Shown here in pieces: positions 51,633 to 63,518 of a stretch of 64,000 nt of DNA. This DNA comes from Acidobacteriota bacterium (lineage in GTDB: Bacteria; Acidobacteriota; UBA890; WLXD01): contig CBDFKD010000002.1 of assembly GCA_965248695.1 (NCBI GenBank), forward strand, positions 3,104,001-3,168,000, given 5' to 3'. Below the pieces are notes generated by a model. That model ran no database searches. It saw only the letters and a list, made by a program, of their open reading frames with translations, and was not told the origin of the DNA. Position 1 is the first letter of the stretch; each line of letters starts with the position of its first letter. Position numbers and translations under genes: made by a program.

Positions 51633-51806
51633 GCATCTCGGGTTTGTCGCTCTCGGCAGCCTTGCGCCGCATCTGGTTGATATGCCAGGGTCCGGCATCG
51701 ATGGGCTGAGAACTCTAGAGAGAGTCTCGCGCGAGGTCAGAGTACCGGTGCGCGATCAACCCGTGGACACCCGCACGGGGTGAATCATCTGATCGGAGGC
51801 AAGCGA

Positions 51807-52496
51807 ATGAGCCGCAAGCAACTCGCAAAGTTCTTGGTGATCGGACTGGCAGTGCTGGCGGTGGCGGTCCAGATCACGGCAGTTCGGGCGATCGCGCAGC
51901 AGGAGGAAGAGCCGGAATCGATGGGTTTCTTCATCACCAGCGTTGGTCCAGGCAATGGCGCCAACCTCGGAGGCCTGTCGGGAGCGGATGCTCATTGCCA
52001 GTCGCTCGCCGAGGCAGTGGGCGCCGACAACCGAACCTGGAGGGCGTACCTGAGCGCCCAGGCGGCGGGCGGCCAGCCGGCCGTGAACGCACGTGACCGG
52101 ATCGGCGTCGGGCCCTGGGCCAACTCCGAGGGGCTCGTGATCGCGACCGATGTCGACGAGCTGCACTACAACAATTCCGCCATCCGCTACGAGTACGCGC
52201 TCAACGAGCGCGGCGAGCGGGTGAACTCCGGGGCGTCGGGCGACTCACCGAGCATGCACGACATCCTGACCGGGTCGGGGCTCTACGGCACCGCCTTTCC
52301 GCCCGGTGAGGATCGCACCTGCGGCAACTGGACAAGCAGCGGCGAGGGCAGCGCGATGCTGGGACATCACGACCGCTTCCGCTTCACCACGCCGGGTAGC
52401 CCGTGGAACATGGCGCATCCGTCGCGCGGCTGCAGCCAGGAGGATCTGGTGGCTACCGGAGGAAACGGGCTCTTCTACTGCTTTGCCGCTGAGTAG
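51807..52496 (+). CDS. Exported lectin/endostatin-like domain protein
   Basis: FFITS, NLGGLSGADAHCQ, WRAYLS, HDILTGS, TCGNWTS, GLFYCFA. Confidence 0.8.
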   Translation: MSRKQLAKFLVIGLAVLAVAVQITAVRAIAQQEEEPESMGFFITSVGPGNGANLGGLSGADAHCQSLAEAVGADNRTWRAYLSAQAAGGQPAVNARDRIGVGPWANSEGLVIATDVDELHYNNSAIRYEYALNERGERVNSGASGDSPSMHDILTGSGLYGTAFPPGEDRTCGNWTSSGEGSAMLGHHDRFRFTTPGSPWNMAHPSRGCSQEDLVATGGNGLFYCFAAE

Positions 52497-56009: not shown

Positions 56010-56282
56010 GTGGGGTCCTCGCCCGGGCGCACTCGCCATCTGGCTGGCACGACCACCGAGCCTGGGGTCCCCGCATAGTCCATGAACCTGTGGGCCATTG
56101 CAAAGAACCCGTCCGCGCGGACGTCGCCGTCGAGGCAATCCTTCGCATCGTCGGCGAGAGCCAGCCCTGACGGAGGCGCCTCGTATTCGACCTCACGCCG
56201 CGCACCTGCCGCAGACTGTCGTTCCAAGCGCTCGACGTGGGATGAACCCAGACGAAGTGTCGACGCCCGGCGAGCTTGTGGT

Positions 56283-56318
56283 TTAGTCTAGGCTAACTTC
56301 TGGATTAGCCTTGATAAA
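56283..56318. promoter_or_regulatory. Tandem DtxR/MntR-like operator boxes
   Basis: TTAGTCTAGGCTAA (56283-56296, 12/14 palindromic) and TTAGCCTTGATAAA (56305-56318), 22 bp apart in an AT-rich patch. Confidence 0.6.
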
Positions 56319-56427
56319 CTTACAAGAACCGATCTCGGCGCGGTGGGATCTGCCCAATGAAAACCAATGCCAGGAAACTGCCAGGAACTGAGCCTTCGCA
56401 GAACTCGAACTTTGGTCAGGGGACCTC

Positions 56428-57564
56428 ATGAGGATCCTTCGTGTCGGCCTCGTGCTGGCGCCGCTACTGCTTGCCGGAACGGCGTATGCGCAGGGCAACT
56501 CCAGCGCTAGTACGTCCCAGACAGGGCCGATCTCCGGCTACATGGAGATGCACTACAACCGGCCGATCGGCGATCCGTTCGCCCCGCCGATGCTGGACTT
56601 CCACCGCTTCGTCCTGTTGGTGTCGCATCGTTTCAGCGACCGCATCCATTTTTTTGGCGAGATCGAGCTCGAGCACAGCATCGTCGAGGGGCTGGAGGAG
56701 AAGGGCGAGCTCGAGCTGGAGCAGGCGTACGTCGATTTCCTGGTGACACCCGAGCTGAACTTTCGCGCCGGGATGATGCTGGCGCCCATGGGGATCATCA
56801 ACGAGCGCCACGAGCCGCCGACGTTCTATGGCGTCGAGCGGCCCTTCGTCGACACGTTCATCATTCCGACGACCTGGTTCGATGTCGGCGCCGGGATCCA
56901 CGGCACGATCGGCGGCAACCTTCGCTATCGCGCCTATGTCATGGCACCCCTCGATTCGGTCGAGTTCTCCGCCGAGGAGGGGTTCCGCGGCGCGGCGCAG
57001 AACGGCAGCAACGCGCAAGCCCGTCGTATGGCGATAACCGGACGCCTAGAGTACGTCGGGTTCCGTGGTCTGACGCTCGGCGCCAGCTTCTGGCAGGGCG
57101 ACAGCAGCGTCACCCTGGTGCGCCTCGAAACTCCCACCTCGATGATCGCCGCCGACGCGCGCTATCGGCGCGGGCGCTTCGAAGGTCGCGTTCAGTACGC
57201 TCACGGATTCGTGGGGAACGCGGCCGAGTTGAACGACGCGGTGTTCCGACTGACCGGCGTCGATCCCAACGTCGGGAGTCAGATTCGTGGGTTCTACCTC
57301 GAGGGGGCATACAGCGTCCTGCCGCGCGACTTCCCGCACGAGCTCGGTCTGTTCGTACGCTACGAGGACTTCGACACCCAGTTCCGCATGGACCAGGGCA
57401 ACGTGATGCTGCCCGAATTCGACCGCGACGCGTGGGTCGTCGGCGCCAACTACTGGCTGGACCCCGACGTGGTCTTGAAGGTCGACTACTCGCACGTACG
57501 ATCGCACAGCGACGTCCTTGGTGGACCGCGTTCGCTCAACCTCGGAATCGGATGGTGGTTCTGA
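56428..57564 (+). CDS. Outer-membrane porin (OprO/P-like fold)
   Basis: Signal peptide, SGYMEMHYN, EIELEH, LEQAYVDF, INERHEP, alternating beta strands, C-terminal LGIGWWF BAM motif. Confidence 0.85.
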   Translation: MRILRVGLVLAPLLLAGTAYAQGNSSASTSQTGPISGYMEMHYNRPIGDPFAPPMLDFHRFVLLVSHRFSDRIHFFGEIELEHSIVEGLEEKGELELEQAYVDFLVTPELNFRAGMMLAPMGIINERHEPPTFYGVERPFVDTFIIPTTWFDVGAGIHGTIGGNLRYRAYVMAPLDSVEFSAEEGFRGAAQNGSNAQARRMAITGRLEYVGFRGLTLGASFWQGDSSVTLVRLETPTSMIAADARYRRGRFEGRVQYAHGFVGNAAELNDAVFRLTGVDPNVGSQIRGFYLEGAYSVLPRDFPHELGLFVRYEDFDTQFRMDQGNVMLPEFDRDAWVVGANYWLDPDVVLKVDYSHVRSHSDVLGGPRSLNLGIGWWF

Positions 57565-58058
57565 TGAAGAGGCACGCCACGATGCGTTGTTCGGTGATCC
57601 TGTGTGGCGTCTTGCTCTGCGCGCCAGTGCAGCCGGGGCCAACCCACCCGACTCCAGATCAGCCGCCTCACGTCGAGCCGTTCCGCGCTCACCCGATCGC
57701 ACGGCAGGACGCAGCCGATCAGCCCGAGCCTGACCGAGTGGTCGAGATCGTCATCGAGCGTTTCCTGTTCACGCCCTCCAAGGTCACCATCGAGGCCGGC
57801 ACCACGGTGGAGTTCCGACTCACGAGCGAGGACACCGACCACGGGTTCCGCATCGTCGGCCCCGGAGACACCGACATCGACGTAGACATTCCGAAGCGCA
57901 ATCGCGGCACGGCGAGCGTGTACTTCGCGCCCACCGAGCCGGGCGAGTATCGCTTCGAGTGCTCGCGCATCTGCGGCGCCGGTCATCTCTACATGAGCGG
58001 CGTCATCGAGGTAACGGCGGCTTCCTCCGAGACCCCGGCGGAAAGAGGCTCCCGGTGA
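57564..58058 (+). CDS. Exported cupredoxin with a CuA-type ligand set
   Basis: FTPSKVTI, SEDTDHGF, ECSRICGAGHLYM (Cx3Cx3Hx2M); ATG overlaps the porin stop. Confidence 0.88.
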   Translation: MKRHATMRCSVILCGVLLCAPVQPGPTHPTPDQPPHVEPFRAHPIARQDAADQPEPDRVVEIVIERFLFTPSKVTIEAGTTVEFRLTSEDTDHGFRIVGPGDTDIDVDIPKRNRGTASVYFAPTEPGEYRFECSRICGAGHLYMSGVIEVTAASSETPAERGSR

Positions 58059-59254
58059 AGAAGGCACTCGTTGTGGGGGGTGTGGCGATCGTCCTGCTGA
58101 CGGCGTTCTCCTGGCAGGCCAATGGCCAGCTGGCTCCCGTCCCCGTGGGCCAGCCGCTCGCCGGCATCACGCCCGACGAGTTCGAGCGTTTCCGCCTCGG
58201 CCTGGAGGATTTTCTCGAGGTAGAGAACGCCGAGGAGGGCCTCGGGCCCGCCTACAACGGCACCAGCTGCGGCGTCTGCCACAGCATCCCCGCGGTCGGC
58301 GGCAGTGGGCTCACCACCGAGCTGCGCTTCGGTACCCTCAACGCCGCGGGAGACTTCCAGCCGCCCCTGCTACCGGATGGCACTCCCGGTGACACGCTGT
58401 TCCAGGTGTTCTCTACCCCGGACCACGCCTGCCAGCCCGTTCCCCCGACAGACGTCAACGTGGCGGCGCGGCGCATTCCGATTCCGTTGTTCGGTGCCGG
58501 CCTGGTGAATGCGATTACCGACGCCGATATCGCCGCGGGGGCCGATCCGGACGACCTCGACCTCGACGGCATCAGCGGACGGGCGGCGCTGGTACAGGAC
58601 GTCGAGACGGGTCAGATGCGTATCGGACGCTTCGGGTGGAAAGCGCAGATCGCGACCCTGCGAACGTTCGCCGGCGATGCCTACCGCAACGAGATGGGCA
58701 TCACCAACGAGATCTTCCCACTGGAGCTCGCCTTCGGGATTCCGGCCGAGAAGATGATTCTCTGCGACCCCTTCCCTGATCCGGAGGACGTCCCCGATCC
58801 GGTGACCGGCTTGAGCGGCGTCGACAACTTCGCCGCCTTCATGCAGTTCCTCGCACCGCCGCCACGCGCCGCAGCAACCGGTGCATCACAGCAGGGGGAA
58901 GACGTTTTCGCATCGATCGGATGTTCCGGCTGCCATGTGCCAACGCTGCGCACCGGCCCGTCCGACAACCGTCTGTTCGACCGGCAGCCGGTGCCGCTGT
59001 TCTCGGATCTGTTGCTGCACGATATCGGCACCGGCGACGGCATCGGCCAGGCTGACGCGGGACCAAACGAGATTCGCACCCCGGCGCTCTGGGGGCTGAG
59101 ATTTCGCCGCATCCTGCTGCACGACGGCTCTGCCGGATCGATCGGCGCCGCCATCCAACGGCATGGGGTAGAGGCCGTCGCCGCCCGCAAGGCGTTTCGG
59201 CGACTGGACAGAAGCAGCCGACAGGCGTTGCTGGAGTTCCTGCGATCCCTCTAG
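58055..59254 (+). CDS. Di-haem c-type protein (di-heme oxidoredictase, DHOR-like)
   Basis: GLGPAYNGTSCGVCH, PLFGAGL, DPDDLDLDGISGR, GRFGWKA, EMGIT, GCSGCH, SDLLLHD, RTPALWG, LHDG. Confidence 0.9.
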   Translation: MKKALVVGGVAIVLLTAFSWQANGQLAPVPVGQPLAGITPDEFERFRLGLEDFLEVENAEEGLGPAYNGTSCGVCHSIPAVGGSGLTTELRFGTLNAAGDFQPPLLPDGTPGDTLFQVFSTPDHACQPVPPTDVNVAARRIPIPLFGAGLVNAITDADIAAGADPDDLDLDGISGRAALVQDVETGQMRIGRFGWKAQIATLRTFAGDAYRNEMGITNEIFPLELAFGIPAEKMILCDPFPDPEDVPDPVTGLSGVDNFAAFMQFLAPPPRAAATGASQQGEDVFASIGCSGCHVPTLRTGPSDNRLFDRQPVPLFSDLLLHDIGTGDGIGQADAGPNEIRTPALWGLRFRRILLHDGSAGSIGAAIQRHGVEAVAARKAFRRLDRSSRQALLEFLRSL

Positions 59255-59401
59255 TCGCAGTCTCGGCGTTGGCCGAGATCGCCCCGGGCACCTGCCATCG
59301 GCGCCGCTCACGCCTGATAGATTCGCTCTCTCGTGATGCGGTCGGTCACGAGCCGCCCGTTGTCCGCGCCCTGTTGATCCACCGCTCACAGGAACGACCC
59401 C

Positions 59402-60436
59402 GTGATCCGCACCCACGCCCTCTCGAAGATCTACAACGTGCCGATCAAGGAGCCGGGGCTGTGGAACTCGGTGCGCTCACTGTTCAATCGCGAGTACCGA
59501 GATGTACGCGCCGTCGACGAGATCGAGCTGGAGATCCAGCCCGGCGAGCGGGTCGGCTTCCTGGGGCCCAATGGCGCCGGCAAGACAACGACGCTGAAGA
59601 TGCTCACGGGCCTGCTGTACCCCACCTCGGGTAGCTGCGAGGTAGCGGGTTACACACCCTCGGACCGGCATCCGGATTTCCTCAAGTCGGTAACCCTGGT
59701 GATGGGACAGAAGCAGCAGCTGCTGTGGGATCTGGCCCCGACCGAGACGTTCGCGCTGAACCGCGCGCTGTTCGATGTACCGCACGCGGAGTTTCAAGAG
59801 ATCCGCGACGAGCTCGTGGAGCTGCTCGATCTCGCAGAGTTCATGGACCAGCCGGCGCGCAACCTCTCGCTCGGGCAGCGCATGCGCTGTGAGCTGGCGG
59901 CGTCGCTGCTGCATCGGCCCGCGGTGCTGTTCCTCGACGAGCCGACGATCGGGCTCGACGTGCAGGTACAGCGAACCGTGCGTAGGTTCGTGAAGGCCTA
60001 TCAGCAACGATACGGAGCGACGGTCATGCTCACGAGCCATGACATGGCGGACGTCGGGGCCATCGCTGAGCGCATCGTCCTCATCGATCAGGGGGTGATC
60101 CGATTCGACGGCCGCCTGGAGGCGTTCCAGCAGACCTTCGGTGGTGGGCGACGCGTGGTGACACGCAGCTCCGACGGCCTCCAAGACCTCGGTTTCATCG
60201 CCGACGAACCCGGGCGTTGGGTGGCCACCGTCCGACCCGAAGAGGTCAACAGCCTGCTCGGGGAGGTGCTGCGGCGGCATCCCGATGCCGACGTTACGAT
60301 CGAGGATCCGCCGCTGGAGGAGGTGCTAGCCACCGCTTTCGCTCGTGAGAGCGGTTCGGACGAGTCAGCGGTGACTCCATCACCCGCACCCGAAGTGTCG
60401 CAGTCAGAGTCCACGGGCGCTCTGGAGGAGCCGTGA
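59402..60436 (+). CDS. ABC transporter ATP-binding protein
   Basis: GPNGAGKTT, LVMGQKQQLLWDL, LSLGQRMRCELAA, FLDEPTIGLD. Confidence 0.94.
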   Translation: MIRTHALSKIYNVPIKEPGLWNSVRSLFNREYRDVRAVDEIELEIQPGERVGFLGPNGAGKTTTLKMLTGLLYPTSGSCEVAGYTPSDRHPDFLKSVTLVMGQKQQLLWDLAPTETFALNRALFDVPHAEFQEIRDELVELLDLAEFMDQPARNLSLGQRMRCELAASLLHRPAVLFLDEPTIGLDVQVQRTVRRFVKAYQQRYGATVMLTSHDMADVGAIAERIVLIDQGVIRFDGRLEAFQQTFGGGRRVVTRSSDGLQDLGFIADEPGRWVATVRPEEVNSLLGEVLRRHPDADVTIEDPPLEEVLATAFARESGSDESAVTPSPAPEVSQSESTGALEEP

Positions 60437-61236
60437 GCATCGTCCGCGTGAGCCGCGCGATGCCGGCAATGTTTCGCATTGGCTTCGCGGAGCTGGTCGC
60501 CTATCGAGCCGAGATGGTGATCTGGATCCTCACGGCGACCATGCCGCTGATCATGCTGGCGCTGTGGAACTCGGTCGTCGCGGAGGCGCCGGTCGCCGGT
60601 TATGGCCCGACCGAGATCACGCGCTACTTCGCAGCAACATTGGTGGTGCGACAGCTGACATCGGGCTGGGTGCTGTGGCACCTGAACTGGATGATCCGCA
60701 CCGGCGGCCTGTCAACGAAGCTACTACGCCCCATCAATCCGCTGGTCTACGAAGCCGTGACCATGATCACGGCGATGCCGGTGCGACTGGTTGTCGTCGC
60801 CCCGATGATTGTGGGGCTGGTCCTATGGCGTCCGGAGCTGCTCGCCTGGCCGGGGTTGGAGGCACTGGCGCTGTTCGCGCTCAGCGTGCTGCTGGCGTGG
60901 CTCATGACGTTCCAGGTGCAGGCGCTGTTCGGCATGCTGGCGTTCTGGACCGATCAGAGCGAGGGCATGTTCGGCGTCTGGTTCGTGATGTGGATGCTGT
61001 TGTCAGGCTACCTGGCGCCGCTCGACATGTTCCCCGAACCGATGCAGGCGATTTTCGACTGGCTACCGTTCCGCGGCATGATCGCGGTTCCGGTCGAGCT
61101 GCTCGGTGGCTTCCTGGCGCCCCGGGAGGCGCTCTTCGACATCGGCGTGCAGGTGATGTGGGTGACGGTGCTGGGCGCAGCTTCAGCAGCCACCTGGCGT
61201 CGCGGCATCCGCCGCTATGGAGCGTTCGGTGCCTGA
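60433..61236 (+). CDS. ABC-2 family permease (DUF990-like)
   Basis: LVAYRAE, IRTGGLSTKLLRP, LSGYLAPLDMFP, WRRGIRRY. Confidence 0.88.
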   Translation: MSIVRVSRAMPAMFRIGFAELVAYRAEMVIWILTATMPLIMLALWNSVVAEAPVAGYGPTEITRYFAATLVVRQLTSGWVLWHLNWMIRTGGLSTKLLRPINPLVYEAVTMITAMPVRLVVVAPMIVGLVLWRPELLAWPGLEALALFALSVLLAWLMTFQVQALFGMLAFWTDQSEGMFGVWFVMWMLLSGYLAPLDMFPEPMQAIFDWLPFRGMIAVPVELLGGFLAPREALFDIGVQVMWVTVLGAASAATWRRGIRRYGAFGA

Positions 61237-62023
61237 GCTACTACGCCAGCTCCGCGCGGTCAGGGCGCTGCTGCGTGTGTCGCTGGCGACGGTGATGCAG
61301 TACCGCAGCAACTTCCTGCTCGAGATGGCGACCGGCGTGCTGCGCTCCGTCGGCAGCGTCGCCCCGCTGGCACTGGTGTTTTGGCACCGCGACAGCATCG
61401 GCGGGTGGGAGCTGCCGCACGCTCTGCTGGTGATAGCGTTTTTCATGGTGATGAGCGGCATCCAGTCGGGCATCTTCGAGCCCAACCTGGGCGAGGCGGT
61501 CGAGTCGATCCGCACCGGCACCCTCGACTTGATGCTCATGAAACCGGTCGACGCGCAGCTGCTGGTGAGCCTGCGAAAGTTCCACGCCGCGGCGGTGTGG
61601 GACCTGGTCGCGGGCGTGGTGGTCGCGGTCGTCGCCAGCGCCTCGCTACCGACGGCGGGGATCGCGGACCTGGCGTTGGCCGTAGCCCTGTTCGGCACCG
61701 GCGTGGTGGCGATGTATGGACTCTGGCTGCTGGCGATCTGCGTCAGCTTCTTCTTCGTGCGCGTCGACAACCTGCGCTTTCTGTTGTGGGCAGTCACCGA
61801 TGCCGGCCGCTGGCCGATCGACGTGTTCACCGGAATGGCGCGCTTCCTGCTGGTCGCGCTGGTGCCGGTAGCATTAATCACCAGCTTCCCTGCCGACGCC
61901 GTGCGTGGCACCTGGTCGCTGCAGACTCTGGCGGTCGCCGGCACCGTGTCGCTGGCGTTCCTGGTGGGCTCGCGCTGGGCATGGAAACGAAGCCTGGCGA
62001 ACTACACCTCGGCCAGCTCGTAG
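61229..62023 (+). CDS. ABC-2 family permease (DUF990-like), second subunit
   Basis: MQYRSNF, IRTGTLDLMLMKPVDAQ, GRWPIDVF, YTSASS. Confidence 0.88.
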   Translation: MPELLRQLRAVRALLRVSLATVMQYRSNFLLEMATGVLRSVGSVAPLALVFWHRDSIGGWELPHALLVIAFFMVMSGIQSGIFEPNLGEAVESIRTGTLDLMLMKPVDAQLLVSLRKFHAAAVWDLVAGVVVAVVASASLPTAGIADLALAVALFGTGVVAMYGLWLLAICVSFFFVRVDNLRFLLWAVTDAGRWPIDVFTGMARFLLVALVPVALITSFPADAVRGTWSLQTLAVAGTVSLAFLVGSRWAWKRSLANYTSASS

Positions 62024-62282: not shown

Positions 62283-62930
62283 CTACTGGGCGTCGTCGAA
62301 GTCGACATTCCAGTGGGTACCGTCACAGAACGGCTTGTTCTTCGACCCCCCGCATCTGCAGAGCGTGAAGGGCCCGTCGAGAGCACCCTCGGCCCGCGGC
62401 ACATCGACGAGCTCGCAGTCTCCGGTGAGCACGTAGGGACCACCGCCAACGACAGCGATGCGCGGCTCGTCCTGCGCGCCGCGTTGCTCAACGCCATCGA
62501 TTGAATAGCTCAGGGCACCGGACGGACACTGCCCCACCGTGGCGATCACCTCGTCCGCTGTGGCCCCATCGGCATCGATCCAGGGCTCCTGCCGAAGCCG
62601 GAACACGGACGGGAGGCCGTCGGTACAACGGCCGGCATGGGCGCAGATGCTGCGGTTGTCGTGCACCGTGATCTCCGCGCCGACATACGTGTCTCGCCTG
62701 TTCTTGGCGGCATCGGCGGTGTTGTCGCCCGAGAACCCGTTGCGTGAGTGCGTTCCGTCGCAGAACGGTTTGCTGTTCGAGCCGCCGCACCGACACAGCG
62801 CAATCGTGCCGCTCGTTTCAAGCTCGCCCGAGGCAGTGGCGACATGCTCGAAATTTTTGGCGAGATACGGGCCGTCTTCCTTGACGCTGATCGTCGGCTT
62901 GTTGTCTGTCACCGATTCCTCCGTGGTCAT
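62283..62930 (-). CDS. CDGSH iron-sulfur protein (CDGSH - divergent 4Fe-4S - CDGSH)
   Basis: Two LCRCGGS..KPFCDGTH motifs flanking ICAHAGRC...QCPSGALSY. Confidence 0.92.
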   Translation of the reverse strand: MTTEESVTDNKPTISVKEDGPYLAKNFEHVATASGELETSGTIALCRCGGSNSKPFCDGTHSRNGFSGDNTADAAKNRRDTYVGAEITVHDNRSICAHAGRCTDGLPSVFRLRQEPWIDADGATADEVIATVGQCPSGALSYSIDGVEQRGAQDEPRIAVVGGGPYVLTGDCELVDVPRAEGALDGPFTLCRCGGSKNKPFCDGTHWNVDFDDAQ

Positions 62931-62940
62931 CGCGTGTCGG

Positions 62941-63282
62941 TCAGGGCGCGAACATCTGCGCTAGCACACGTAGCGAGCTGTCCAGCGCCTTGGTGGAGAG
63001 CGTACCGAGTCGTTTGATCAGGCGGCGGCTATCTACCGTACGGATCTGATCGATTACGACGTGCCCGGATCGCGACTGAAAACGGCACGGCACCCGGAAC
63101 GGGTAGCTGTGACTGCTTGTCGTCAGGGGAGCGACGATGTGGGTGCGGAGGTGCGCGTTCAACTCGTCTGGTGAAACCACCACACACGGTCGGGTCTTGC
63201 GAATCTCGTCGCCGCGCGTCGGGTCGAGGTCGATCAGATAAACGTCACCGCGCCGAACCTTGGCGGCGCCTACCAATGCCAT
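62941..63282 (-). CDS. mazF: PemK/MazF family toxin
   Basis: RRGDVYLIDLDPTRGDEIRKTRPCVVVS, VAPLT, DQIRTVD. Confidence 0.94.
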   Translation of the reverse strand: MALVGAAKVRRGDVYLIDLDPTRGDEIRKTRPCVVVSPDELNAHLRTHIVAPLTTSSHSYPFRVPCRFQSRSGHVVIDQIRTVDSRRLIKRLGTLSTKALDSSLRVLAQMFAP

Positions 63283-63518
63283 TCGCCGCGGTCGAAGTCC
63301 GTCGGCTGCGCTTCATCGAATTCGGAATCCCGCCCTACGGTTGCCAGCGCTGCAGCGGCGTCAGACCAGCCGTTGCGAGCCGTCGCTGGGCGGGCGATCA
63401 CAATCTCCCCCTCGCGCACGACGAGCTCAACTTCCTCGTCGAGGCCAGCCTGCTCGATGAGCAGCTTCGGCAACCGCACACCGCGGGAATTGCCAATCCG
63501 TACGAGTCTGCTTTTCAC
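63270..63518 (-). CDS. mazE: AbrB/MazE family antitoxin
   Basis: LVRIGNSRGVRLPKLLIEQAGL; overlaps the toxin start. Confidence 0.93.
   Translation of the reverse strand: MKSRLVRIGNSRGVRLPKLLIEQAGLDEEVELVVREGEIVIARPATARNGWSDAAAALATVGRDSEFDEAQPTDFDRGEWHW

Follow-up and report, generated by a model that had tools for sequence, protein, structure and literature searches.

What process in the bacterial cell envelope might call for an outer-membrane porin, a small copper protein of the CuA type and a di-haem c-type protein of the DHOR (DUF1111) family, all encoded in one overlapping set of genes? The question is raised by a locus in a stretch of 64,000 nucleotides from an Acidobacteriota bacterium (assembly GCA_965248695.1, contig CBDFKD010000002.1, positions 3,104,001 to 3,168,000), here called the window, in which the three genes follow each other on one strand in the order porin-cupA-DHOR. 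We refer to these genes as the "trio", and the coordinates given for them are positions in the 64-kb window; G and L numbers are our handles for genomes and loci. The interest of the trio lies in its stand-alone CuA centre, its link to an iron regulon and its spread in a dominant soil phylum. The analysis described below finds the trio conserved as a block in many soil Acidobacteria and, judged from its candidate operators, the trio appears to be iron-regulated and switched together with feoAB, a link to iron regulation that is new here.

Organization of the locus

The three genes are laid out as follows:

56428..57564, + strand, porin gene, 378 amino acids, from the open reading frame (ORF) call
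57564..58058, + strand, CuA cupredoxin gene (cupA), 164 amino acids, from the ATG overlapping the porin stop
58055..59254, + strand, DHOR di-haem gene, 399 amino acids, from the GTG overlapping the cupredoxin stop

Read from the sequence, the porin/cupredoxin junction is TGATG (57562-57566), the cupredoxin/DHOR junction is GTGA (58055-58058) and the DHOR stop codon is TAG (59252-59254), in agreement with the first-pass annotation of the window, which had described three overlapping genes with stop/start overlaps at 57564 and 58055. That annotation had set the beginning of the module at 56281. No gene starts there; the position falls on an operator-like box (56283-56297), and the porin ATG comes later, at 56428. 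Each of the three translations has one hydrophobic leader at its N-terminus, and all three proteins carry putative export leaders. The porin gene is separated from a divergent SnoaL-like gene by a 289-bp region. A scan of positions 56100-59450 for sigma-70 promoters and terminators yielded none belonging to the trio, and a 7-bp hairpin with no T-run follows the DHOR stop (59261-59278).

Identity of the three proteins

No NCBIfam model was reached by any of the trio proteins, and their identities come from Pfam, motifs and folds. These bear out the porin, CuA cupredoxin and DHOR assignments made at first pass, with the qualification that the Pfam matches of the porin are sub-threshold only (Porin_4, 20.5 bits; Porin_O_P, PF07396, 18.9 bits against a cut-off of 20.9 bits). 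The first gene is modelled as a 16-stranded outer-membrane porin. The AlphaFold model, built with 60 relatives (mean predicted local distance difference test score, pLDDT, 86.7), shows 16 strands, with residues 119-150 forming an internal loop, and its Foldseek matches are the classical 16-strand porins OmpU, OmpF/OmpC and OprP (E-values of 1e-11 to 1e-13). The protein has an N-terminal leader and ends in GIGWWF. Mean column identity over the 60 sequences is 58%, which is unusually high for a porin, and the internal loop 3 (119-150) is nearly invariant at P120, G122, N125-P130, G135-R138, P147, T149 and W150. Strands 1-4 carry conserved runs of Glu and His (H42, D57, H59, H67, E78/E80/E82, E94/E98) that stand opposite conserved Arg and Lys residues; the assignment of residues to the lumen side is a guess from the periodicity of the strands and not taken from coordinates. 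With OprP/OprO and the general porins this protein has in common the 16-strand barrel, the internal loop 3, the C-terminal aromatic residue and a weak Porin_O_P similarity, whereas it scores below the Pfam cut-off, carries conserved Glu/His ladders rather than an Arg ladder (lumen sides being guessed) and belongs to a family tied to periplasmic redox genes.

The second gene is predicted to encode an exported, stand-alone cupredoxin of the CuA type with a complete ligand set, and copper binding is predicted for it. Both Cupredoxin_1 (1.7e-8) and COX2 (PF00116; 3.2e-5, 24.3 bits against a cut-off of 22) match above their cut-offs. The candidate ligands H93, C133, C137, H141 and M144 (C133x3C137x3H141x2M144) lie in motifs that are invariant in 52 aligned relatives, and D[TV]xHGF together with Cx3Cx3Hx2M is found in 72 of 72 orthologues. 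The nearest solved relatives are soluble CuA domains, with Thermus ba3 oxidase subunit II matching at 1.3e-12 over residues 52-150. The protein thus shares the full ligand set and whole-domain similarity with the CuA domains of that subunit and of N2O reductase, but it stands alone with a single hydrophobic segment, its leader, where a CoxB protein would have two membrane helices at the N-terminus, and without an adjacent subunit I or NosZ. The CoxB and NosZ models of NCBIfam match it far below their cut-offs (37.5 bits against 147.7 for CoxB, TIGR02866), and no oxidase subunit I or NosZ body was present among the genes scanned near the trio. A search for longer, fused cupredoxins returned two proteins of ~291 amino acids, neither of them with DHOR or porin domains. 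An apparent read-through from cupA into DHOR at L059 was considered as a true fusion and rejected, the internal leader being kept and the C-terminal DHOR frame lost, as in an assembly error.

The third gene, by its motifs and profile match, is taken to encode a compact DHOR di-haem c protein. It matches PF06537 (DUF1111) at 4.6e-44, with 151.2 bits against a cut-off of 22, over profile positions 209-499 only. Its two CxxCH haem motifs (residues 72-76 and 290-294), which the first-pass annotation had pointed out along with the cupredoxin motif, are invariant in 61 aligned relatives, as are the core segments GRFG(W)K, LLHD and HDG, which also occur in the long imelysin-linked forms, and the histidines H322, H356 and H370. 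The trio protein is ~140 amino acids shorter than those long DHORs (537 amino acids). Missing from it are their ~95-residue N-terminal domain and the segments inserted behind the first CxxCH, and the short and long forms agree in all haem and His/Trp/Tyr residues of the core. In the model (pLDDT 87.9) residues 3-21 form a leader helix, and Foldseek retrieves bacterial di-haem peroxidases, MauG, BthA and hydrazine synthase gamma (E-values ~1e-6, TM-scores 0.4-0.5), the matches including 6e1c, a MauG-like protein associated with copper homeostasis. A profile of the 61 relatives matches the Nitrosomonas europaea di-haem peroxidase 1iqc at 1.9e-9, and in this alignment the invariant His370 falls on Met258 of the peroxidase, which we take to be the axial ligand of the electron-accepting haem. 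Because His370 stands at this ligand position, the second haem of the DHOR protein is probably bis-His. No match of the DHOR protein to PF03150 was obtained at E <= 0.01.

Conservation of the trio in Acidobacteriota

Co-occurrence of the three genes in other genomes had been set beforehand as the test of whether they form a unit, and the answer is strongly positive. In a public scan that used the DHOR alignment as query and one genome per species, 80 loci were recovered, and the order porin-cupA-DHOR is repeated in 66 of them (L020-L081, L084-L086, L089; one of these, L077, is cut by a contig end). Because the same gene order recurs in so many of the loci, the arrangement is far from chance. 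Of the remainder, one locus has its cupredoxin cut by the contig start (L083), two begin inside the DHOR gene and are uninformative (L087, L090), and eleven have upstream DNA in which no partner gene is present (L082, L088, L091-L099). The DHORs of L091-L099 show 47-50% identity, lie in varied contexts and come from records titled Burkholderiales, Casimicrobiaceae, Verrucomicrobiota or Chthoniobacterales. The trio loci come from records titled Acidobacteriota (Vicinamibacterales, Bryobacterales, Terriglobia-type and unclassified); the taxon names of relatives are those of the record titles throughout, and a few implausible ones ("Bifidobacterium", "Cyanobacteriota") were taken as labelling errors.

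The same picture emerges from a sample of 301 Acidobacteriota genomes, evenly drawn from the phylum, in which the top-tier matches to each query are set off by sharp gaps in score. There are 28 DHOR matches of at least 550 bits in 27 genomes (next best, 447 bits), 27 cupA matches of at least 142 bits (next best, 105 bits) and 26 porin matches of at least 548 bits plus one frameshifted copy in G012 (next best, 334 bits). Above these gaps the partners occur almost only with each other: 27 of the 28 DHORs, all 27 cupA genes and all of the porins lie in trios, which number 27 in 26 genomes, G236 having two (26 trios in 25 genomes when G071, flagged as unpublished, is left aside). The trio was not detected with these queries in the other genomes of the sample. 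Since kin genomes are not independent, such counts overstate the number of independent events. The only sampled genome with a top-tier DHOR by itself is G291, where the lone gene is followed by one for a 514-residue DHOR-like cytochrome, with a divergent TonB_C-domain gene upstream (L104, G291:C86:7000-17000).

Closer to the window, cupredoxin orthologues 70-82% identical are present in 4/4 genomes of the same genus and in two genera that belong to a different family. In all six of these loci the porin and DHOR genes flank the cupredoxin, and the regions beyond the trio differ among relatives and are not syntenic. When the flanking ORFs of 65 trio loci were clustered, no neighbour recurred apart from a dtxR-like gene (no Sco/PCuAC, TonB or permease), with the proviso that ORF calls are crude in GC-rich flanks. 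The frameshifted porin gene of G012 (L017, G012:C10:547975-549035) is split over two reading frames with one TAA, and that of L025 is apparently interrupted too. The broken trio genes in L017, L025 and L059 probably reflect errors of assembly, or gene decay in the genomes concerned.

Candidate operators and the link to iron regulation

Two overlapping elements lie between the divergent SnoaL-like gene and the porin gene:

56283..56297, no strand assigned, DtxR/IdeR-like operator box TTAGTCTAGGCTAAC, 131 bp upstream of the porin ATG
56290..56311, no strand assigned, inverted repeat AGGCTAA-N8-TTAGCCT, overlapping the box and unique in the genome

The box TTAGTCTAGGCTAAC is identical upstream of the trio in 4/4 same-genus genomes, though the rest of the upstream region has diverged. 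Its 14-base palindromic core, TTAGNNNAGNCTAA, has three sites in the 5.9-Mb genome. One is that of the trio. The second, at C2:2125100, lies 56 bp upstream of an ORF for an 81-residue FeoA-like protein that overlaps the gene for a 760-residue FeoB, and the third, at C2:320236, closely precedes a MarR-like ORF and a gene for a MacB-like permease. In the sister genomes the box is present at the trio in 4/4 and upstream of feoA-feoB in 2/4 (G001 and G003). The exact 15-base box, allowing up to 2 mismatches, is not enriched in the genome (4 hits against 9 for the reversed control). Because the box is no commoner than its control, the argument for a regulon rests on the palindromic core and on the location of its few hits. 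The iron boxes of DmdR1, a regulator of the DtxR/IdeR family, are given as TTAGGTTAGGCT[C/A]ACCTAA in PMC7174319 (Table 1), and the trio box resembles them, agreeing at 13 of the first 15 positions. The genome encodes one DtxR-family protein (Fe_dep_repress, Fe_dep_repr_C and FeoA domains) and two Fur-family proteins.

The core was also seen at a few further places. It precedes the MarR-like gene and MacB-type permease gene in the window genome (L124, G000:C2:317000-323500) and in G002 and G003. In G002 it precedes a gene for a 490-residue protein with a CCP_MauG-like C-terminus (L149, G002:C9:1789512-1792525), and G004 has a double box between genes with no family match. The MarR/MacB locus and the CCP_MauG-like gene of G002 are possible further members of the regulon.

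In other lineages a second palindrome, (A)TTTTGA-N4-TCAAAA(T), is found 7-60 bp upstream of the porin gene. Sites of the form TTTTGA-N4-TCAAAA with at most one mismatch occur in the promoters of the trio, or of a same-strand dtxR gene directly upstream of it, in 31 of 70 loci. When the sites listed in these 70 loci (~0.72 Mb) were sorted by hand, 38 of 41 proved to be at promoters of the trio, of dtxR or of feo, and the other 3 lay elsewhere. Genome-wide, G301 has two exact sites. One is the trio promoter; the other is the divergent promoter that separates dtxR from a [DtxR_C-FeoA]-feoB operon, which lies directly downstream of the trio. In G302 the single exact site is at the trio, and a DtxR_C-FeoA gene is preceded by a site with one mismatch. 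In G303 two trio-type porins have exact sites, and feoAB and a third porin of this type have sites with one mismatch. The palindrome therefore marks feoAB or dtxR promoters as well in 3/3 genomes scanned, where reversed controls with at most one mismatch gave 8, 0 and 0 hits (G301, G302 and G303). A DtxR-family gene whose product is at least 59% identical to the G301 protein (tblastn) adjoins the trio in 19 of 86 loci; two further loci have weaker full-length matches (L048, L076) and two have partial ones (L025, L026). A feoB gene lies within the 4.5-kb flank in 5 of the 86 (L024, L042, L045, L054, L071).

By its operator, by the regulator encoded in the genome and by the box that it shares with feoAB, the trio has the attributes of a member of a DtxR/IdeR regulon. 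We call it iron-regulated because two unrelated operators tie it to feoAB and because dtxR is often adjacent, and we infer that repression of the DtxR/IdeR type would be released when iron is scarce. The role in Fe or Mn oxidation or capture that had been proposed at first pass thus gains, as regards a metal, independent support from the operators common to the trio and feoAB and from the adjacent dtxR-family genes.

Relationship to known systems

The nearest comparison is with the imelysin/DHOR loci of the IrpA, IcmP and PIBO type. These have the DHOR haem motifs and invariant core in common with the trio, and they are iron-linked, as the trio appears to be. In Acidobacteriota they are also headed by a paralogue of the trio porin and keep the same three-gene order: porins of 135-145 bits stand first in the porin-imelysin (PF09375)-long DHOR loci of three genomes, G162, G107 and G143 (L100-L102), and the first two of these carry the CuA trio as well. 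In the trio the CuA cupredoxin holds the middle position and imelysin is absent, the DHOR protein is compact (~140 residues shorter), and the regulator belongs to the DtxR type, whereas for Pseudomonas Fur is reported (PMC3143127). No imelysin (PF09375) was detected in the window or in the genome, which is 96% complete, and the only FTR1 gene in the genome is at C2:3931688, ~770 kb from the trio, with none in the neighbourhood. The statement made at first pass that none of imelysin, FTR1 and oxidase subunit I adjoins the trio is confirmed.

With EfeUOB and FtrABCD the likeness is one of proposed net chemistry, in that a haem peroxidase and a cupredoxin element would act on periplasmic iron under iron limitation. 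EfeB, however, is an enzyme of the dye-decolourising peroxidase (DyP) type and not a c-type di-haem protein, and the trio has neither an FTR1/EfeU permease nor an M75 domain, its cupredoxin is predicted to hold a binuclear CuA centre, and its operon includes an outer-membrane porin. The di-haem cytochrome c peroxidases and MauG share with the trio DHOR two c-haem domains, the HDG segment and homology in profile and fold, and in both cases a small copper protein is the probable redox partner. Set against this are the lack of a PF03150 model match, the TM-scores of 0.4-0.5 with large insertions, the invariant His at the position of the Met ligand (the second haem of that family being His/Met or His/Tyr), a CuA partner in place of type-1 copper and the placement of the trio in an apparent iron regulon.

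Paralogues of the porin suggest that the trio is one version of a recurring design. Locus L103 (G119:C182:12000-21500) encodes, in one direction, a porin (CarboxypepD_reg plus Porin_O_P), FMN_bind, ApbE, a 201-residue protein and a short DHOR, and looks like a flavin version of the trio design. Second-tier porins (227-334 bits) are present in roughly 70 of the 301 genomes; among 11 loci sampled, ApbE adjoins the porin in five (L105, L107 with FMN_bind, L108, L111, L115) and a PF03150 di-haem peroxidase in one (L112), and in five nothing was recognised or ORF calls failed. A porin followed by a periplasmic redox or metal partner and, in some cases, a di-haem enzyme is thus a design that recurs, and the trio is its CuA version.

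Small cupredoxins with the CuA motif are also found outside the trio. Second-tier ones adjoin genes for DUF5777 membrane beta-barrels in L150, L153, L155 and L156, and at L152:3201-4637(-) the cupredoxin and the barrel are fused in one protein of 478 amino acids. A histidine kinase and a sigma-54 response regulator are encoded upstream in L150, L154 and L156, and a kinase only in L151 (L150-L156 are from G180, G279, G228, G207, G252, G270 and G297, respectively). In L157, L159 and L160 (G139, G190, G152) the partner of a small CuA cupredoxin is a mono-haem cytochrome c, and L159 and L160 also have a Metallophos phosphoesterase and an extracytoplasmic function (ECF) sigma factor.

No description of a porin/CuA/DHOR unit was found in the full-text literature (supplements and subscription journals being outside this scope), and the words porin, imelysin, cupredoxin and peroxidase are absent from the flavinylation survey PMC8238504. 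In passages of 10.1101/072470, DUF1111 operons are cofit and a role in ferrous iron uptake is proposed, and passages of PMC3143127 link the DUF1111/DHOR family to iron uptake; in neither is the link accompanied by biochemical proof. The trio is a variant, with CuA in place of imelysin, of a porin-X-DHOR theme present in the same phylum, and the "new module" suggested at first pass is too strong.

Proposed mechanism and alternatives

The operon structure, the cofactor motifs, the folds, the conservation as a block and the operators in common with feoAB come from the sequence analysis itself. Beyond these, we lean towards the general view that the trio is an iron-regulated envelope redox module for iron acquisition. 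For the fuller reading, in which it is a single operon induced by iron starvation, with CuA replacing imelysin and with a compact DHOR, we would give a probability of about 0.5. Under this reading, a repressor of the DtxR/IdeR type would free the operon at low iron, and the porin, with its conserved eyelet loop and Glu/His ladders, would admit iron, most likely Fe2+, into the periplasm. There the CuA protein, whether soluble or anchored, would be the one-electron partner of the di-haem DHOR. Among several conceivable mechanisms, the one we favour keeps each step in its textbook direction. Fe(II) might reduce CuA, as in cupredoxin-dependent iron systems, and CuA might pass the electrons to the di-haem enzyme, as cupredoxins do for bacterial cytochrome c peroxidases, with the di-haem enzyme reducing peroxide. 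Cupredoxin elements occur in iron systems of the EfeO/FtrB type, and cupredoxins donate electrons to bacterial di-haem peroxidases. The net result would be a peroxide-linked ferroxidase like EfeB/EfeO, by which iron would be captured as Fe(III) and the Fenton pair removed. Such an activity would also account for the induction, under iron starvation, of a haem enzyme that is itself costly in iron, for which EfeB offers a precedent. The tentative part of the scheme, less likely than not in our view, is the route of the electrons from Fe(II) to CuA, on to DHOR and finally to H2O2. We regard as equally speculative the idea that a soluble binuclear CuA, working apart from any terminal oxidase and any N2O or NO reductase, serves as the ferroxidase or relay of an iron-specific outer-membrane channel, coupled to the di-haem enzyme, in a copper-dependent form of iron acquisition.

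Several observations weigh against this scheme. A core with 10 fixed bases such as TTAGNNNAGNCTAA is expected ~2 times per genome by chance (our own estimate), and reversed-pattern controls for it gave 0-3 hits per sister genome. Neither operator is found in 39 of 70 trio loci, including most of the Bryobacterales-type ones. Regulator and operator are paired on grounds of similarity and co-occurrence only, Mn can be the metal sensed by regulators of the DtxR family, and the window's box might instead belong to the divergent SnoaL-like gene. The sequencing runs listed for the stretch are four DNA or contig runs of one study, and no RNA run was among them. FeoAB imports Fe(II), so that a reductive or Fe(II)-protecting role fits at least as well as an oxidative one, and no Fe(III) permease or binding protein was found linked to the trio. 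Because His370 suggests a bis-His haem of lower potential, transfer of electrons from CuA to that haem would probably be uphill. Top-tier DHORs that lack the partners also exist (G291, L082, L088).

One alternative sees in the trio a module that serves FeoAB by reduction or by guarding Fe(II). The periplasmic pair would receive electrons from the respiratory chain and would reduce Fe(III), or small Fe(III) chelates arriving by way of the porin, or would remove peroxide so that Fe(II) survives to FeoB. Periplasmic reduction followed by uptake through FeoAB is an established idea, and it would be in keeping with the operator common to the trio and feoAB in the window genome and in 3/3 other genomes scanned, with the five loci that have feoAB beside the trio, and with a likely bis-His second haem, which suits a reductase of lower potential. 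CuA centres, however, have potentials near +240 mV, too high for most Fe(III) chelates; a 16-strand porin would not pass siderophores; and the trio has no membrane partner that would oxidise quinol and no recurrent neighbour but dtxR. On balance we think this alternative rather improbable, though it is the one to which we would give most weight after the iron-acquisition reading. The metal itself might also be another than iron. The DtxR family includes Mn sensors and some FeoB proteins carry Mn, and copper might be considered in view of systems like MbnT/MbnP/MbnH, the copper-homeostasis-associated 6e1c among the fold matches and the requirement of the trio for copper in its CuA. The regulators adjacent to the trio nonetheless have the three-domain IdeR/DtxR architecture with a FeoA/SH3 domain, the co-regulated genes are feoA and feoB, the window box resembles the iron boxes of PMC7174319, and the ligands of CuA mark an electron-transfer centre and not a copper carrier. 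Manganese or copper in place of iron accordingly seems quite unlikely to us.

Two further alternatives would detach the trio from metal acquisition. It might be a general periplasmic peroxidase with a dedicated cupredoxin donor, in the manner of a bacterial cytochrome c peroxidase with azurin or pseudoazurin; cupredoxins are known donors to such enzymes, the DHOR protein is homologous in fold and profile to the di-haem peroxidases, and one porin paralogue adjoins a PF03150 peroxidase (L112). Peroxide, on the other hand, needs no dedicated and highly conserved porin, PF03150 itself is unmatched by the trio protein, and the operators, like the regulators encoded nearby, belong to the DtxR/feoAB type and not to a peroxide-sensing one; we consider this role as improbable as that of a manganese or copper system. 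The combination of porin, cupredoxin and c-type haems also resembles the chains of iron oxidisers, and pairs of a CuA cupredoxin with a beta-barrel, and one fusion of the two, exist in the phylum (L150-L156), so that an energy-conserving conduit like Cyc2-rusticyanin, carrying electrons from Fe(II) through the pair to a terminal oxidase, might be imagined. The operators and the co-regulation with feoAB point to a trio derepressed when iron is low, whereas a respiratory substrate would call for the reverse, no oxidase is linked to the trio, and the carriers are labelled in their record titles as ordinary soil heterotroph lineages; we hold such a conduit to be very improbable. Plain peroxidase activity, a manganese or copper role and lithotrophic iron oxidation are thus all less likely than the iron-acquisition reading and its FeoAB-centred alternative.

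Neighbouring genes in the window

Genes for a DrrA-like ATPase of the ATP-binding cassette (ABC) type and for two ABC-2 membrane proteins (PF06182) occupy 59402-62023 (+), beginning 148 bp past the DHOR stop. This transporter was considered as a member of the trio operon and rejected, as it lies beside the trio only in G000 and G001. An exported protein of 238 amino acids with a weak DUF1554 match is encoded 4 kb upstream of the trio (51780-52496, +), and a DUF1554-like protein is encoded within 1-7 kb of the trio in sister genomes (L014, L016, L019), directly after DHOR in L014. Farther downstream, 62283-62930 (-) encodes two CDGSH iron-sulfur domains and a Fer4_19 domain in one protein, and two small overlapping ORFs at 62941-63518 (-) resemble, in translation, a toxin of the MazF/PemK type and an AbrB/SpoVT-like antitoxin.

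Implications for iron nutrition in Acidobacteria

Acidobacteria are among the most abundant of soil bacteria, and their iron acquisition is poorly known. The DHOR/DUF1111 family is common, and in the 15 years for which it has been associated with iron no biochemical function has come to light. A compact trio in which the CuA protein is an obvious one-electron partner offers a tractable way into the function of the DHOR enzymes, and the two operators provide testable predictions of DtxR-type regulons for the phylum. A CuA centre working outside the respiratory enzymes would widen the roles of this cofactor. If the proposed mechanism is true, copper supply would be tied to iron nutrition in soil bacteria, and the trio would represent a prokaryotic, envelope-level parallel to the copper-iron coupling of the Fet3 type, widespread in soil Acidobacteria and under the control of iron sensors of the DtxR type.

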